From a virus (taxonomy: Duplodnaviria > Heunggongvirae > Uroviricota > Caudoviricetes): a DNA stretch of 11,521 nucleotides. Position numbers and translations under genes: made by a program. This document shows, piece after piece, positions 935 through 11,521 of the stretch (within the stretch, counting starts at the first letter, position 1; each line of letters begins with the position of its first letter). The stretch lies in IMG/VR virus record IMGVR_UViG_2657245124_000008, one strand, 5' to 3'. The notes under the pieces are model-generated. The model was not told the DNA's origin and did no database searches. It saw only the letters and a list, made by a program, of their open reading frames with translations.

Positions 935-2620
935 GTGAATATAAACGTCGCCGAATTGTTAAATGGGAATTACATTCTGTTATTATTTGTGGTCCTCGCG
1001 CTTGGGCTATGTCTCGGAAAGTTACGACTTGGTTCGATCCAACTGGGTAATTCCATTGGCGTTTTAGTCGTATCGCTGTTATTAGGCCAACAACATTTCA
1101 GCATTAACACCGATGCGCTTAATCTTGGCTTTATGCTGTTTATTTTCTGTGTTGGGGTTGAAGCCGGACCGAACTTTTTTTCCATTTTTTTTCGCGATGG
1201 GAAAAATTACCTAATGTTAGCACTGGTGATGGTTGGCAGTGCGCTGGTGATCGCCTTAGGGTTAGGTAAGCTGTTTGGCTGGGATATTGGCCTGACGGCC
1301 GGTATGTTAGCAGGCTCTATGACGTCGACACCGGTTCTGGTCGGTGCTGGCGATACACTGCGTCATTCCGGCATGGAAAGCAGGCAGCTCTCACTGGCAC
1401 TGGATAATCTGAGCCTCGGGTATGCCTTAACCTATTTAATCGGTCTGGTGAGTTTGATTGTTGGTGCGCGTTACTTGCCGAAATTGCAGCATCAGGACTT
1501 ACAGACCAGCGCCCAGCAAATCGCCCGCGAACGTGGCCTAGACACTGATGCCAACCGTAAGGTTTATTTACCGGTGATCCGCGCCTATCGCGTCGGCCCG
1601 GAGCTGGTGGCCTGGACCGACGGCAAAAATCTGCGTGAACTGGGTATTTATCGACAAACCGGCTGCTACATTGAACGTATTCGACGTAACGGGATTCTGG
1701 CAAATCCAGACGGTGATGCCGTGCTACAAATGGGCGATGAAATAGCGTTGGTAGGCTATCCCGACGCCCATGCCCGACTCGATCCCAGCTTCCGTAACGG
1801 TAAAGAAGTTTTCGATCGTGACCTTCTCGACATGCGTATCGTCACTGAAGAAGTGGTCGTTAAAAACCATAACGCTGTAGGTAAACGTCTCGCACAACTG
1901 AAGTTGACCGATCACGGTTGCTTCCTTAACCGCGTCATTCGTAGCCAGATTGAGATGCCGATAGATGACAACGTCGTGCTTAACAAAGGTGACGTTTTAC
2001 AAGTCAGCGGTGATGCCCGTCGCGTAAAAACCATCGCCGATCGCATCGGCTTTATCTCGATTCACAGCCAGGTCACTGACCTGCTGGCATTTTGCGCCTT
2101 CTTTGTTATTGGGCTGATGATCGGGATGATCACCTTCCAGTTCAGCACATTCAGTTTCGGCATGGGGAACGCTGCCGGGTTGTTATTCGCCGGAATTATG
2201 CTGGGCTTTATGCGTGCTAACCACCCGACCTTCGGTTACATTCCGCAGGGTGCATTAAGCATGGTGAAAGAGTTCGGCTTGATGGTGTTTATGGCAGGCG
2301 TTGGTCTGAGCGCCGGTAGCGGTATTAATAACGGCCTGGGCGCGATTGGCGGTCAGATGTTGATTGCCGGATTGATTGTCAGTCTGGTGCCCGTGGTTAT
2401 CTGTTTCTTGTTCGGTGCTTATGTATTGCGAATGAACCGCGCGCTGTTGTTCGGCGCAATGATGGGCGCACGTACCTGCGCGCCGGCAATGGAGATCATC
2501 AGTGATACAGCTCGCAGTAACATCCCGGCGCTGGGCTATGCGGGCACCTATGCAATCGCCAACGTCCTGCTGACGCTGGCAGGGACAATCATCGTCATGG
2601 TATGGCCAGGATTAGGATAA
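935..2620 (+). CDS. ybjL: putative transporter YbjL (561 aa, AAE/YidE-YbjL type), GTG start
   Basis: 561-aa polytopic membrane protein starting [24 protein letters not shown], matching E. coli YbjL from memory. The start codon at 935 is GTG. Hydrophobic N- and C-terminal halves flank a soluble central region, as in YidE/YbjL proteins. Confidence 0.9.
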
Positions 2621-2732
2621 AACTGAAGTTGCCCTGAAAATGAAATTTTTTTGCACAACCGCAGAACTTTTCCGCAGGGCATCAGTCTTAATTAGTGCCA
2701 CTGCTTTTCTTTGATGTCCCCATTTTGTGGAG

Positions 2733-2776
2733 CCCATCAACCCCGCCATTTCGGTTCAAGGTTGATGGGTTTTTTG
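2733..2776 (+). terminator. rho-independent terminator-like hairpin in the ybjL/prophage junction region
   Basis: Stem CCCATCAACC (2733-2742) pairs with GGTTGATGGG (2760-2769) across a 17-nt loop, followed by TTTTTTG. The T-run is on the plus strand, so this most likely terminates ybjL. The same hairpin read on the minus strand may also terminate ogr. Confidence 0.5.
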
Positions 2777-2855
2777 TTGCCTGAAATTTATGTCGTTTAA
2801 AATCATGACGTTAGAAGCACTGTTTTTTAACGATGGCGACAAAATGGCGGCAGCG

Positions 2856-3074
2856 TCAAAGAGAGAGCGCCACCTGTCCTGATTTCATTGGATGCGGCTG
2901 AACCGGATTTGACTCTTTTGGCGTTGCAATCGAACGAACAAAAGTTTCATGGGTTACAAAAGTATGGCTGCAGTTAATATTCTGGCACTGGTTGTAACGC
3001 TCTTTGGTCAATGAAGATACCTGAAAACTGCTGCGAGTATGGGCGGCACTTCCACACAGTGGGCAAATCATCAT
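2856..3074 (-). CDS. ogr: Ogr/Delta-family zinc-finger late transcription activator (about 73 aa)
   Basis: Product MMICPLCGSAAHTRSS...KERYNQCQNINCSHTF... has the Cys-x2-Cys ... Cys-x4-Cys arrangement and KERY(H/N)QCQN(V/I)NC core of P2 Ogr. The six-frame ORF extends to 3167 only because no in-frame stop intervenes. The internal ATG at 3074 aligns with the P2 Ogr N-terminus and is preceded by GGGAGA. Confidence 0.75.
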   Translation of the reverse strand: MMICPLCGSAAHTRSSFQVSSLTKERYNQCQNINCSHTFVTHETFVRSIATPKESNPVQPHPMKSGQVALSL

Positions 3075-3110
3075 TTTTCGAGTTCTCCCATTTTTGCTAA
3101 ATTCACAATA

Positions 3111-3137
3111 ATGATACCGCATTATTCCATTTTGCAA
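3111..3137 (-). promoter_or_regulatory. candidate sigma70 promoter for ogr
   Basis: Read on the minus strand: -35-like TTGCAA (3132-3137) and -10 TATCAT (3111-3116) with a 15-16 nt spacer, about 35 nt upstream of the ogr ATG. This is a by-eye match only. Confidence 0.3.
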
Positions 3138-3163
3138 ACTTAAAAGTTCTCCATTGCGAAGAA

Positions 3164-4264
3164 TCATTCCATTTCGAAATCATCAATCTTCACTTCGAGT
3201 TCAATACTGGTTGTAAAACCGTTATCCGGGCTGACGGTATGTGTCAGAGTCGTAATGGTCCATTCCGCATCATCTATCGGCTGTTTAAAACCACTGACCT
3301 TCACAGGCATTTCCGTGTAGAGATCTGCCCGCCCTTCTGCCAGTTGTAGCGAAAATGACGCAACGCCGCGTTGCAGGCGTTCCCACTGCATTTTCGCCGC
3401 TCGTTCGGCGTTGCTCCGGTTGGCATAAGTGCGATTAAGTACCAGCACGTTTTCATCCGTACCCACCAGGTAATCGCCCTGCTTCGCTTCTGGCTCTTTC
3501 TTCTGCTTCTTAGTTCTGCGCTTACGCTTCACCGTGGTGCTTTCTTTCTTCGCAGGTTCGCGGGTATGCAACCAGCTGGCAATTACGCCCGTGTAGGCTC
3601 CGCGATCTGCCAGGGTAAATCGGTGACTGTCGCCGTCCTTGCGTGTGATAGTGATCACTGGCAGAGGTTTACCAGTGACGCTTTTGCCCTGCCCCTGCCG
3701 GATGAATAACAGATTGCCATTTTTCACCGACGCGATGGCACCGTATTGTCGCGCCAGCCGCATCAGAAAACTGCCGTCACTCTCATTAGTCTGGTCTATA
3801 TGCTCCACGGGCTTATCCGACAGGTCTTTACCCAGTGCCATCTTCAGCTTGTGCCGCGCGGCTATTTCCTTCACCACTTCCCCGACGGTGGTCTTATGCC
3901 ACGATTTTTCACGGCGGGTATTCAGCGTTTCCCGAAAATCAGCACTTCGCGCCCGGATAGTCAGGCGGTCCGGTGCGCCAGTGTGTTCAATCTCGTCCAC
4001 TGTGAATGCCCCTTTCGGGAAAAGCAGCTGCCCCTTCCAGCCCAGCGCCAGCGTAATGACCGCACCACGGCGCGGCAGCACGATTTTTCCGTCAGCGTCA
4101 TCCAACTCCAGATCAAGCTGGTCCGCTTCAAAGCCCCGGTTATCCGTCAGCGTCAAACTCATCAGGCGGTTATCCAGCACTGTGGTGATATCCCTGCCCT
4201 CAATACTGATGCTGAATGCGGGAGTTTTGTTGCCTTTGTTAAGCAGTTCTGAGCTGAAATTCAC
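3164..4264 (-). CDS. D: P2 gpD-like tail protein (366 aa)
   Basis: 366-aa product with recognisable similarity to P2 gpD, sitting immediately after U and before ogr as in P2. The start is GTG at 4264, overlapping the U stop (GTGA). Confidence 0.85.
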   Translation of the reverse strand: MNFSSELLNKGNKTPAFSISIEGRDITTVLDNRLMSLTLTDNRGFEADQLDLELDDADGKIVLPRRGAVITLALGWKGQLLFPKGAFTVDEIEHTGAPDRLTIRARSADFRETLNTRREKSWHKTTVGEVVKEIAARHKLKMALGKDLSDKPVEHIDQTNESDGSFLMRLARQYGAIASVKNGNLLFIRQGQGKSVTGKPLPVITITRKDGDSHRFTLADRGAYTGVIASWLHTREPAKKESTTVKRKRRTKKQKKEPEAKQGDYLVGTDENVLVLNRTYANRSNAERAAKMQWERLQRGVASFSLQLAEGRADLYTEMPVKVSGFKQPIDDAEWTITTLTHTVSPDNGFTTSIELEVKIDDFEME

Positions 4265-4746: not shown

Positions 4747-7700
4747 GCGTCGTATCCCCCCTGATCGCTGTAGTTACTCCTGGCTTTTGCCTTCAGCCTG
4801 CGTTCACGTTCATCAAGCTGGCGTGCCACCTCCCGCGCAATATCCTGCGCACTTTGTCCTGGCTGCGTCTGAATGATGATCTGCGTCGGTGCCTCAATCC
4901 GTTGAACGAGCGGCACAGTGGCTGCGCGACTCACAATTGCTTCTCCACCTTTCGCGGGAAGTGCCAAAGGGTGCAACGGTGGAAGCTCTGCTGGCGCGGC
5001 AGCAACGCCCATCATTCCGGCAACAACGGCAGCCAGTGCAGCTGTATTTCTCCGGCTGGTCACATTTGCCGGGCCGTTAACAATTTCCGGCCCGTTTTCA
5101 CCGACGATGCCAAACTGCCCGCGCGGGATATACCCGCCGCTGTCATACATCCCCGCAAAGCCATATCCCCATGATGGAAAACCACCCGATGGCATCATCA
5201 CTTTGCCGTCTGCATTCACCGTCGCAGGTTGCTGACGCGTCACGCTTTCCGGTAGTTTTGCCTTTGCGGCCTCTTTACTGACAATGCCGAGTTTCTCCAG
5301 CAACCAGGAAACGCCGGATTTCAGGGAGTCCAGCGGATGCATGACCATATTCAGCCCTTCCGCCAGAGCCTCCCCGAATCGTCGCCCCATTGCCGCTGCA
5401 CTCTGCAGTTCGGCAGAGGTCGACTTAACGGGCGTCAGCAGGTCAGTAAACCAGCCCCACAGCGCCTGCACTTTGTCGCCAATCCACTGGAACACAGGCT
5501 TAAGTGGTTCGAATGCGGCACTGACGGGACCTGCCGCCGCTTTGAATCCCTCCACCACGCCACCGAGAAATGCGGTGATGGGTTGCCAGTATTTCCAGAC
5601 AACCAGCGCCACGCCTGCCAGTGCAGTAACCACTAGACCTATCGGACTGAGCAGAGCACCTAACAGACCAGATATGGCATACAGGGCAACGCGCAGCATC
5701 GCCAGTGGACCAGATGCCAGTACTCGCTGCACCGTACCTGCGGCGGTCAGTCCACCGCGCAGTACCGCCAGAGGATTCATAAACATCACAGCAACCGCAC
5801 GTAAACCGGATAATCCAGACCGCAAAAGTGCAACCGGCGCACCTGCAACAGTTTTCAGGACATTTCCCGTCAGTGATGCCGTACGGCGCAAAGACGACAA
5901 CGGCGCAGTAAGTAAACCCGCTGCGTTACCCGATAAAGCAAGCCCGTGTCGCAGCAGTGCCAGTGGTGCGCCAGCCAGCCAGGACAACGCGCTGCTGGTT
6001 CGTGTTACTGCTGCCGTAACGGAAGGTAACGTTTTGATGCCCAGCACAGAGAATCCCAGACGGATGACTGCCAGCGGCCCCAGCACTGCAGCCAGCGCCA
6101 CAGCCAAGGTGCCGAGGCCGACGGTAACCGCAGCCACAATAGCGGCTACTTTCATCAGTGTGCCCGTCAGTTCCGGGTTAGCTTCCACCCAGCGACGCAA
6201 CGCTCCCGTAACGCTTTTCACCGTGTACAGAATATCCATCAGCGGCTGGCGCAGCGTTTCGCCCAGGCTGCTGAAGGTATTCTGCGCTCCGGTTTTAACC
6301 AGCAACCACTGAGCAGAAAGTGAGTCCTTGTTGATGTCGGATTCTTTCTGCATGGAACCGAGCGCATCATTGCCCGCTGTCAGTTTTAGCTGGCGCTGTA
6401 GTTCCGGCAGGTTGTTTGCCAGTTTCGCCGCGTCATCGCCAAACTCTTTACCAAACAACATGGTCATGGCAGACAGACGCTTGTCCTGCGGCAGTGCGTT
6501 CACCTTCTCCAGCACACGCTGGATAGTTCCCATCGCATCCTTCGTCATCTGCTTTTCAATCACTTCAGGATTGAGTTTCAGCAGATTCATCCCTTCAAAG
6601 AAACTCTTGCTTTGCATGGTGGCAATGGACAATTCACGCACCATCGCGTTTGCTGCACTGGCTGCAACCTCCGGCGCAGCGCCCAGTGTCAGAAAGGTGG
6701 AACCCAGTGCCGCCGCTTTACGATAATCCAGACGGTCAGCCACACCGCCCAGACGTTGCATCACATCAATGATGTCCGCCCCTTTCGACATGGCGTTATC
6801 ATCCAGATAGTTCAGCGCATCGCCGAGCTGTTCAATATTGCGGGTAGGTATTTTGTAGAGCTGGGCGATTTTCCCCAGACTTTCTGACAGTTCATCCGCT
6901 GGCAGCTCAAAGGCTGTTGCCGCCTTTGCTGCCGTACTGGCGAAGGCCAGCAGGTCACGTTTCTGGTCTTCCCAGCTGTCGTCAGGGTCTGCGACGTTCA
7001 TGCGCGCACCACCTTCAACCAGTGCAGCGAAGTCCACCGCACCGTTTTCCATCGGCAACTGTTCGCTGGCAGCCTTGATGGCATCCTGCATTTCATAAAA
7101 ACGTGCAGTACGGTTTCCATTATCGTCACGCAGACCATTGACCTGCTTTGCCACACCTTTCATGGCATCTTCCATGCTGGTATAGCTTTTTACTGCCGCC
7201 ATCACTGGCGTCCCCATTGCCAGCCCTGCAGCCGTGGTAGTGGCTCCGGCTCCTGCAATACGATCGCGCACCTCCAGCGAACGGGCATAACTGGCACGCG
7301 CCGCATTCATCCTGCGCTGAGCTTCACCCAGTCGCTTCAGCCGCGCCTCCTGTTTCGACAATTCCTGGTTATAACGTGATGTTTCACGGGCTAAACGGGC
7401 AGTTGCTCCCGCATCATCTTTCGCAGAAATTCCCGCCCGGTACAGTTCTGCACGCACAAGCGCCGTTTGCTTCTGCAAATATTTTTGTTGTTCTTCCAGG
7501 CGTTGGACTGCCAGCGTTTGCCGACCTAAAGCCACAAGGTGCCGTTGTGATGGTTGTTCCATCGCCTCCAGCTCAGAGCTAAGCAAATTAGCCTTCTGTC
7601 TGGCATAGTTCAGCCTGTCGCCTAACTTCTTGTTATCGGCCTGCAGCTTGCGAAATTTTTCCAGGCTGTTACCCGCCTGATTGAGTTGCTTTAATGCGTC

Positions 7701-10143: not shown

Positions 10144-10566
10144 TCAGGGGGATTCATTGCTCTTATTTGCCGGAAATTTTCTATACATGGTAGAAACGCC
10201 TACATCAAAAATCAGTGCAATACGCTGTCTTGATTCTCCGGCCTCGAGTAAACGCCCAATCTGTGCCCACTGTTCGGTGGTCAACTTAGGACGGCGTCCA
10301 CCTACTCTGCCTTTAGCACGAGCTGCAGCCAGCCCTGCCCTAGTACGTTCGACAATAAACTCTCGCTCCATTTCAGCCAGGGCACCCATCACATGAAAGA
10401 AGAAGCGCCCCATAGGCGTACTCGTATCGATGCTATCCGTCAGGCTCCGGAAGTTAACACCTTTCTCCCGCAGTTCCTCCACTAACCCAACAAGATGTCG
10501 CATGCTGCGACCGAGGCGGTCACGCTTTCAGACCACCAGCGTATCGCCTTCAGATATGCATCCTTG
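10144..10566 (-). pseudogene. Pin/Hin/Gin-family serine DNA invertase, N-terminally decayed
   Basis: The 119-aa ORF (10144-10503) matches the C-terminal two-thirds of Pin/Hin-type invertases (MRHLVGLVEELREKGVNFRSLTDSIDTSTPMGRFFFHVMGALAEMERE..., with the C-terminal helix-turn-helix). Upstream in the same frame, homology continues as ...EGDTLVV*KRDRLGRSM, with a TGA (10528-10530) where the conserved Trp of GDTLVVWKLDRLGRS sits. A TAG follows at 10567-10569 and no recognisable catalytic N-terminal domain is found in any frame. Confidence 0.8.
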
Positions 10567-10666
10567 CTAAACTTAGATCGCCGGTCACCAACTAAGCATG
10601 CAGTATGCGTTATGTTTTTTATTGCTCCCAGGGTAATGTGTCCACTAACTAAACAAGGAGATAGTG

Positions 10667-11218
10667 ATGCTGCATACTATGAATTTCACGGTGCCCGTAA
10701 ATCAGTCCACCGTTAACGCTTTAATTAGCAATTGCCTTGGAGCTATCAATCAGGGGGCGACTGAGTTAAACATTTACATTTCCAGTCCGGGCGGTGACCT
10801 CGTTGCAGGTTTTACTGCTTATCACTTTCTAAAGGCCCTACCAATCCCAGTAAAGACCCATAACCTTAGCAATGTTGAATCAGTCGCTAATATCATTTTT
10901 CTTGCAGGGTCTGAACGTAAGGCGAATCCTGGGAGTCGGTTCTTACTGCATCCTTTTCACTGGGGCTTGATGGGCCCAAGCGTGGATCACTCACGCGTCA
11001 GTGAGTGGGGCGCGTGTCTCAATAATGACCTGGAGCGTTTTGTCGATATTTTGGAGAGTCAGATTGAGCTCAGTAAGAGCCGCAATGAGTGGAAGGAGGT
11101 TATCTCCGCCGCCACCATAGCCAATGCCTCCACAGCTCTGGATTGGGGGATGGTTCACGAGGTTGCCGCCGCCACTTACCCGCAGGCACCCGGCACATAC
11201 TGGTGGATTAACTGTTAA
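10667..11218 (+). CDS. stand-alone ClpP-like (S14-type) serine peptidase, about 183 aa
   Basis: AAGGAG Shine-Dalgarno (10655-10660) lies 6 nt before the ATG at 10667 (the ORF track begins at an in-frame GTG at 10664). The product aligns by eye to the ClpP core: IYISSPGG versus ClpP YINSPGG, Ser72 in ESVAN versus ClpP GQAASMG, and His95 in LLHP versus ClpP MIHQP. It lacks the ClpP N-terminal axial segment and is oriented against the late operon. Confidence 0.7.
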   Translation: MLHTMNFTVPVNQSTVNALISNCLGAINQGATELNIYISSPGGDLVAGFTAYHFLKALPIPVKTHNLSNVESVANIIFLAGSERKANPGSRFLLHPFHWGLMGPSVDHSRVSEWGACLNNDLERFVDILESQIELSKSRNEWKEVISAATIANASTALDWGMVHEVAAATYPQAPGTYWWINC

Positions 11219-11377
11219 CATAATTACCTCTCAAATTTAAATTGGGCAGAGATGCCAGCATCCAGGCTCGCGCCTGGACGATTGTCTGATGATGAAAAGT
11301 GCAGTTTAATCTGTGGCTGGATTATCTGGATGCACTGGAGCTGGTTAATACCTCCAGTGCGCCAGATATTGAATGGC

Positions 11378-11521
11378 CTACTCCTCCGGCAGTTCAGGCC
11401 AGATGACATCCGGTGCGGTGCTGGTATCTGTTGCCGTCACAGCGTCGATATAATCCAGCACAACGTTAAGTCGGGTAGTTTCTTCTTGCGTCAGTTTGCG
11501 CCCGGCCTGCAGCTTTAACTG
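11378..11521 (-). CDS. tail fibre assembly protein (gpG/Tfa-like), C-terminal 47 codons; gene continues beyond the window
   Basis: The minus-strand frame entering from the window edge is open and reads ...RKLTQEETTRLNVVLDYIDAVTATDTSTAPDVIWPELPEE, ending at a TAG (11378-11380). This resembles the conserved C-terminus of tail-fibre-assembly proteins (…D.S.AP.I.WP..P), and the position matches gene G in P2 order. Confidence 0.55.
   Translation of the reverse strand, partial: QLKLQAGRKLTQEETTRLNVVLDYIDAVTATDTSTAPDVIWPELPEE

Follow-up and report, generated by a model that had tools for sequence, protein, structure and literature searches.

The 235 bp that separate ybjL from ogr in the DNA analysed here in all likelihood contain attR, where the ogr-proximal end of a P2-family prophage (186/Fels-2-like regulatory type, PhiECO1 integration group) meets the host; the prophage, of 34.5 kb, looks complete, and is inserted in the 3' end of rybB, between ybjL and rcdA. 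No observation made here speaks against this interpretation. The prophage boundary can be given to the base: the DNA is host up to position 2764, the core shared by the two partners spans 2765-2778, and phage DNA starts at 2779. The window, i.e. the whole stretch analysed (11,521 nt of the viral record IMGVR_UViG_2657245124_000008), is 100% identical to E. coli 1297KP (NZ_CM173856.1), and was extended in this strain to a locus of 45.7 kb, called L001. P2/Fels-2-like phages are already known from published work to use rybB, which is a common site. Nothing reported here is new in kind, and the result tidies annotation rather than being a discovery.

Location of the junction

The genes and sequences that delimit the junction are the following, with positions referring to the window.

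935-2620, plus strand: ybjL, host flank gene, aspartate:alanine antiporter family (ORF; RefSeq annotation of the identical record; Pfam Asp-Al_Ex, 7e-84, and TrkA_C)
2765-2778, plus strand: att core ATGGGTTTTTTGTT, 14 bp, the same in attB, attP, attL and attR (four-way alignment; two copies in 45.7 kb)
2765-2791, plus strand: extended imperfect 27-nt direct repeat (repeat search; 24/27 against L001 37290-37316, spacing 34,525 bp)
2779-2855, no strand: phage-derived ogr-proximal arm of the att site (empty-site genomes unmatched past 2791; joined to the int-side arm in KP12 and in eight IMG/VR contigs)
2856-3074, minus strand: ogr, late-gene activator, last prophage gene (Pfam Ogr_Delta, 5e-22; RefSeq WP_000972391.1)
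3164-4264, minus strand: gene for a gpD-like late control/tail protein, anchoring the P2-type order D-ogr-att (Pfam Phage_GPD, 2e-26; annotation)

A preliminary description of this DNA had set the ybjL stop at 2620 and the ogr stop at 2856, about 235 bp apart, and had placed the junction and the att core in between. ORFs, RefSeq and Pfam agree on the two genes. Read from the ORFs, the ybjL stop is a TAA at 2618-2620, the stop of ogr, on the minus strand, is TCA/TGA at 2856-2858, and the gap covers 2621-2855, precisely 235 bp. Identity to the host is complete at 2621-2778, where the window matches K-12 MG1655 at 158/158 positions; alignment to the prophage-free site, as had been suggested, makes identity end at the core. 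Among 5426 complete E. coli genomes, those free of the prophage align with the window only as far as 2791, while another chromosomal copy of the same phage end aligns only from 2759, and phage records begin to align at 2765-2784. From the two partial matches, to 2791 and from 2759, it follows that the breakpoint falls inside 2621-2855. According to the four-way alignment of att sites, which sets the core at 2765-2778, the interval consists of 144 bp of host DNA, the 14 bp common to both, and then 77 bp from the phage. The preliminary description had allowed for an interval made entirely of ancestral chromosome, or for a true junction located elsewhere. With the empty-site match ending at 2791, K-12 identity reaching 2778, phage records starting at 2765-2784 and the core duplicated at the far end, there is a vanishingly small chance that either holds, and neither outcome was encountered.

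In K-12 MG1655 and BL21, rcdA, rybB and ybjL adjoin without any prophage, and the convergence of ybjL and rcdA, given in the earlier account for a prophage-free K-12, is what the K-12 annotation reports. In L001, rcdA resides at 37320-37856, beyond the prophage. The core lies 144 bp past the ybjL stop, and 16 bp from the rcdA stop in the empty site, and is thus nearer to rcdA.

The core and the reconstructed attachment sites

A directly repeated core was expected at the integrase end of the prophage, and has been found there. The second copy lies at L001 37290-37303, and adjoins the integrase side and rcdA. In the 45.7 kb ATGGGTTTTTTGTT occurs exactly twice, at the two prophage ends (0.01 copies expected), and the spacing of the two cores, 34,525 bp, gives the length of the prophage. 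When the four sites are aligned, attR results from the left part of attB joined to the right part of attP, attL from the left part of attP joined to the right part of attB. In the record of Klebsiella phage 4LV2017 (KY271398) the homologous 19 bp (window 2765-2783) are marked as attR, and the ogr-proximal nature of this end, proposed from gene order, is supported by that annotation.

The empty host site was rebuilt as a 71-mer made of the left flank from the window, the core, and the right flank from L001 (predicted joint sequence …GGTTGATGGGTTTTTTGTTATCTAAAATTTATC…, also given as …TTCAAGGTTGATGGGTTTTTTGTTATCTAAAATTTATCTAC…). This attB has been found at 100% over 71 nt, and is at least 80% covered in 4195/5426 complete E. 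coli genomes (77%). The phage site was rebuilt from the int-side and ogr-side arms with the core in between (predicted joint sequence …CCCGTTTACATAAATGGGTTTTTTGTTGCCTGAAATTTATG…). Klebsiella phage KP12 has it uninterrupted between int and ogr (97.6% identity over 250 nt), and eight IMG/VR viral contigs contain an exact match to 34 nt spanning the attP joint. A T at L001 37313, where K-12 and BL21 carry a C, was considered as a sign of crossover beyond the 14-bp core, and rejected, being a common allele of the empty site.

The target gene

2663-2690, plus strand: sigma-E-type promoter of rybB, AGAACTTTT (2663-2671) and GTCTTA (2685-2690), start at G2697 (sequence reading; same as K-12)
2697-2775, plus strand: rybB, 79-nt Hfq-dependent sRNA gene, integration target, intact in the lysogen (Rfam; K-12 annotation)
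2731-2771, plus strand: intrinsic terminator hairpin of RybB, followed by a U-tract at 2770-2775, with its 3' arm in the att core (RNA fold; Rfam structure line)

The preliminary description held that integration does not target a tRNA gene. This stands, as ARAGORN found no tRNA or tmRNA in the window. The interval is not an anonymous spacer, however: RybB, the only RNA reported by Rfam in the window, had been overlooked, and the core is the 3' end of its gene. The match to RF00110 spans 2700-2778 and model positions 1-79 of 79, and scores 105.3 bits (gathering score, 40); the rybB ncRNA annotated in K-12 (887979-888057) corresponds to window 2697-2775. The K-12 annotation has the gene between rcdA (ybjK) and ybjL, on the ybjL strand. 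The same location between ybjK and ybjL has been reported along with a strict dependence of rybB on sigma-E (Papenfort et al. 2006, PMC1804206). Compared to the sigma-E consensus, GGAACTTTT / GTCAAA (PMC1804206), the putative rybB promoter matches at 8/9 positions in AGAACTTTT and at 4/6 positions in GTCTTA.

The RNA corresponding to 2697-2778 folds at -25.2 kcal/mol (z = -3.3), and 0/200 shuffled sequences were as stable. A simple scan for terminators over 2550-3200, in which loops of up to 8 nt were allowed, found none; the loop of the RybB hairpin is larger, and structured. The core is made of the 3' stem arm ATGGG, six Ts and GTT, and takes in the final 11 nt of rybB and the 3 nt that follow. 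Phage and host have the same core sequence, so that insertion does not alter rybB, and the gene in the lysogen is identical to that of K-12. Hence an RNA gene is hit at its 3' end and restored intact by the very sequence that is shared. As the core coincides with the 3' half of the rybB terminator stem and the U-tract, the phage applies to an sRNA gene the strategy used to target tRNA genes.

Integrase, candidate arm-type sites and the attP hairpin

L001 34762-35781 (outside the window): integrase (Pfam Int_N, 2e-32, and Phage_integrase, 4e-21)
2834-2853, minus strand: candidate integrase arm-type binding site, two direct repeats 11 bp apart (the reverse complement, CTGCCGCCATTTTGTCGCCA, fits 186-type tgccGCCActt)
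L001 37176-37195, minus strand: matching candidate arm site in the int-side arm, CTGCCGCCACTTTGTCGCCA (fits tgccGCCActt)

The repeat bound at the arms by integrases of the 186 type is tgccGCCActt, that of the P2 type tgTGGaCa (Nilsson et al. 2011, PMC3448106). At least two direct repeats fitting tgccGCCActt are found on each side of the core, and represent candidate sites. The 20-nt motif TGGCGACAAANTGGCGGCAG, the reverse complement of which (CTGCCGCCACTTTGTCGCCA) includes tgccGCCActt, is present in only two copies in 45.7 kb, one per arm (0.02 expected), and the arm motifs are kept in KP12, E. coli HS and strain 18KM2445. By direct reading, P2-type tgTGGaCa is absent from both arms on either strand. 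Repeats of AACTTATTGTTTT, arranged in tandem in the int-side arm, are no more than candidates for IHF or Apl/Cox sites.

Just to the left of the core, attP carries a hairpin of its own, ACCCGTTT-ACAT-AAATGGGT, followed by a T-run (-7.9 kcal/mol). The core is therefore the 3' half of a terminator-like element in both partners. The hairpin (L001 37276-37295) differs between strains, and reads CCCGTTT in 1297KP, CCCATTT in the attL of E. coli HS. The G to A change turns a G·U into an A-U pair, and the stem is kept, which hints at selection on the hairpin.

In the model we favour, the tyrosine integrase would contact attP at the arm-type repeats on either side and at core-type sites around ATGGGTTTTTTGTT, and strands would be exchanged in the left part of the 14-bp identity. 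Because the core supplies the 3' stem arm and the U-tract of the RybB terminator, such exchange would rebuild rybB unchanged at attR, as is seen in the lysogen; attL would be left, as is also seen, with the small hairpin and the T-run of the phage, which carry the same ATGGG-T6, 16 bp from the rcdA stop. Excision would reverse integration through Int and an Apl/Cox-type factor. Binding of Int to the candidate arm and core sites is predicted from the repeats and the published consensus.

Probable crossover position and a secondary site

A related prophage (Int 94-97% identical) is found in strain 18KM2445 next to gnsB, inside a Qin-like prophage. Its ends map at 5686-5699 and about 40380-40393 of locus L010, and the empty form at 1549-1562 of locus L019. 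The secondary-site sequence, AGGTTTATGGGTAATTTGTA / ATGGGTAATTTGTA, has AGGTTNATGGGT..TTTGT in common with the rybB site. In its empty form, AGGTTT-ATGGGTAATTTGTA, the secondary site occurs in other genomes, and, once rebuilt as part of a 109-nt query, is at least 80% covered in 631 genomes.

The attR of 18KM2445 reads ATGGGTA-T-TTTGT-T, the attL ATGGGTA-A-TTTGT-A; at positions 8 and 14 of the core, attR has the alleles of the phage and attL those of the host. Both strand exchanges must therefore have taken place at or to the left of position 7/8 (2765-2772). Position 7 has the host allele at both 18KM2445 junctions, as it would if it fell within the overlap region, or if attP were a variant. 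Judging from this one natural secondary-site lysogen, strand exchange would be confined to about the first 7-8 nt of the core, and the crossover is likely to occur in ATGGGTT.

Since a non-rybB lysogen exists, the function of rybB is not needed for recombination. The insertion of a prophage with such a similar integrase at AGGTTTATGGGTAATTTGTA, by gnsB, lends some weight to the idea that the enzyme reads a short DNA word only, and that the overlap with rybB is incidental, no strategy directed at the 3' end of RNA genes having been selected. We regard this as unlikely. The same Int/att lineage is established at rybB in Escherichia, Klebsiella and Enterobacter, and the exact match of the core to the 3' arm of the terminator and the U-tract preserves the gene. 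Similarly, the attP hairpin ends in the same ATGGG-T6, the strain difference from G·U to A-U keeps its stem, and 186-type integrases tend to use RNA genes (PMC3448106). Reading of a short word and targeting of the 3' end of RNA genes differ mainly in the evolutionary interpretation.

Content and state of the prophage

Past ogr, the prophage carries a P2-type gene set that includes D, tail, baseplate, lysis, capsid, terminase, portal and replication endonuclease genes, then Dam, CII, Fil, CI and the integrase; rcdA comes next. Two regions are decayed, as a recombinase remnant is found at 10144-10557, and tail-fibre-assembly fragments at 11270-11728. These pseudogenes, together with the 1.4 kb of cargo that part int from its arm site, could be taken to mean that the junction is real, but marks a defective prophage, fixed in the chromosome, and an attR which no longer recombines. 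The genes are otherwise full-length (int, CI, CII, replication, capsid, tail, lysis, ogr), both cores are exact and both arm motifs intact. In addition, the relative that E. coli HS hosts at the same site (Int 96%) appears to be the inducible and transmissible DuoHS, and the site varies among genomes, being empty in 77% and occupied in about 20%, as would be expected under active turnover. That the prophage is a fossil is accordingly quite improbable, and attR is best seen as the junction of a prophage that looks complete.

The integrase is 1.5 kb distant from the core, unlike in relatives, because a two-gene cargo has been inserted in between. The int-attL gap (L001 35947-37175) hosts genes for a SocA/Panacea-domain protein (Pfam, 2e-19) and for a 251-aa protein. 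The latter has no match in Pfam or PADLOC, and the pair as such no match in PADLOC. The Klebsiella relatives are without this pair, and E. coli HS has a different small gene in the same place; to judge from these comparisons, the int-att gap looks like a variable cargo slot. The Panacea pair may be a toxin-antitoxin or defence module.

Other segments vary as well. Window 10144-11521, which sits between the tail sheath and the tail-fibre genes, contains the truncated recombinase pseudogene, a ClpP-like protease gene (10667-11218) and two tail-fibre-assembly fragments. At the same position strain 18KM2445 has an intact recombinase and an invertible-looking tail-fibre cassette. The host-range switch appears to have been broken here by the ClpP-like insertion. 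The ClpP-like protein has no PADLOC match. At L001 24747-26432, next to the portal gene, lie the genes for an ATP-dependent nuclease of the OLD family, for which PADLOC gave an Old-family match (1e-20) and no other, and, adjacent to it, for a hypothetical protein of 176 aa; this old/tin-type cargo position is taken by other genes in HS and 18KM2445.

Distribution among strains and hosts

The ybjL-rybB-ogr-D junction is found in 1115/5426 complete E. coli genomes (20.5%), as counted by coverage of at least 80% of a 1-kb query. The carriers come from sources that include humans, dogs, a calf igloo sample and a kangaroo. The insertion had been presented as strain-specific; it does vary between strains, but its frequency had been understated, and it is far from unique to one of them. 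An exact-pattern scan for the phage-side junction in one genome per species identified only Enterobacter sp. kpr-6 and Escherichia sp. E1V33, two loci that are too few for a statement on host range. In both, as in Klebsiella phage 4LV2017, the junction adjoins RybB.

Two phage records deserve a comment. The “complete genome” of 4LV2017 (KY271398 / NC_047818) runs about 100 bp past its own annotated attR (positions 1-100 of our locus L003), and thus holds the host rybB (Rfam, 103 bits). This trimming artefact could seed false annotations of a “phage-encoded RybB”. OM835953 (locus L004, Klebsiella phage KP12 clone KP12_3) is labelled Vequintavirinae, and region 26733-34795 carries P2-type repressor, integrase, ogr, gpD-like and tail genes, with the int-attP-ogr region intact. 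It looks as if either the taxonomy label is wrong, or the clone derives from a co-purified temperate phage.

Relation to known systems

In P2, attP lies between ogr and int, and chromosomal sites such as locI are used. The 1297KP prophage resembles P2 in the order D-ogr-attP-int, which is intact in the relative KP12, in having a tyrosine integrase, and in the presence of arm sites on both sides of the core. It differs from P2 because it lacks tgTGGaCa arms, and features a CI/CII switch rather than C/Cox. P2-type integrases insert mostly between other genes, and not into RNA genes (PMC3448106).

Coliphage 186 (tRNA-Ile) and Fels-2/SopEPhi (ssrA tmRNA) have an integrase of the same type as the 1297KP prophage, with arm repeats fitting tgccGCCActt, and likewise integrate at the 3' end of a structured RNA gene that is left intact (PMC3448106). 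Differences concern the target, here an Hfq-dependent sRNA gene instead of a tRNA or tmRNA gene, and the core, which is 14 bp long and includes 11 nt of the gene, whereas cores are long, and preserve the tRNA gene, in 186 and in relatives such as PhiESP and PhiKPN (50 and 110 nt).

The closest counterpart is PhiECO1. One common integration site has been assigned to PhiECO1 (E. coli HS 916812-948276), PhiECO2, PhiECO3 (CFT073) and PhiSEN1 of S. Typhi (PMC3448106), and hosts of the PhiECO1 group include E. coli HS, ATCC 8739 and CFT073 (Nilsson, Karlsson and Haggard-Ljungquist 2011, PMC3448106). The study of Nilsson et al. 2011 (PMC3448106) makes no mention of rybB. PhiECO1 of HS shares with the 1297KP prophage the rcdA/ybjL site, the 14-bp core, the arm motifs and the 186-type CI/CII/Fil switch; Ogr and CI are identical, and Int 96% identical. 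The spacing of the cores in HS, 31,464 bp, agrees with the published PhiECO1 coordinates, and compares with a length of 34,525 bp for the 1297KP prophage. The latter differs from PhiECO1 also in cargo, as it carries the Panacea-domain gene pair, the OLD-family nuclease, and the ClpP-like gene with the broken invertase near the tail-fibre genes. E. coli HS harbours a P2-like prophage named DuoHS, which is induced by the SOS response and lysogenises a cured strain that has a reconstituted attB (PMC12055606). DuoHS is probably the same as PhiECO1.

Felsduovirus prophages targeting rybB have been described at E. coli defence hotspot #29, “within the small RNA rybB” (Hochhauser 2023, PMC10121019). 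Bobay 2013 is cited for rybB by Hochhauser, and the gene is not named in its main text. In Klebsiella, Kpn38RybB has been reported (Hudson et al., 2014, PMC4048246). Kpn38RybB and 4LV2017 are similar to the 1297KP prophage in having a homologous attR at 2765-2783, and ogr-D DNA about 96% identical. They differ in the host genus, in the int region, where DNA identity is about 88%, and in the absence of int-att cargo.

Significance of the insertion

Integration may in principle have regulatory side effects, on the termination of rcdA transcripts, or through sigma-E-driven antisense transcription into ogr, but we deem this very unlikely. If it were so, the strong rybB terminator located 16 bp past the rcdA stop (-23.5 kcal/mol on the antisense strand) would be replaced by the weak phage hairpin, and transcription of rcdA could run antisense into the Panacea cargo. 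At the other end rybB is head-on to ogr in the lysogen, 81 bp from the ogr stop. Read-through from rybB under envelope stress could there give rise to RNA antisense to ogr, and such RNA would couple envelope stress to prophage development.

Knowledge of the att anatomy is of use for prophage curing, for strain engineering based on attB, and for the trimming of phage records derived from prophages. As for the biology of these phages, the target, supposedly intergenic, proves to be the 3' end of a conserved stress sRNA, and the sRNA survives the insertion undamaged.
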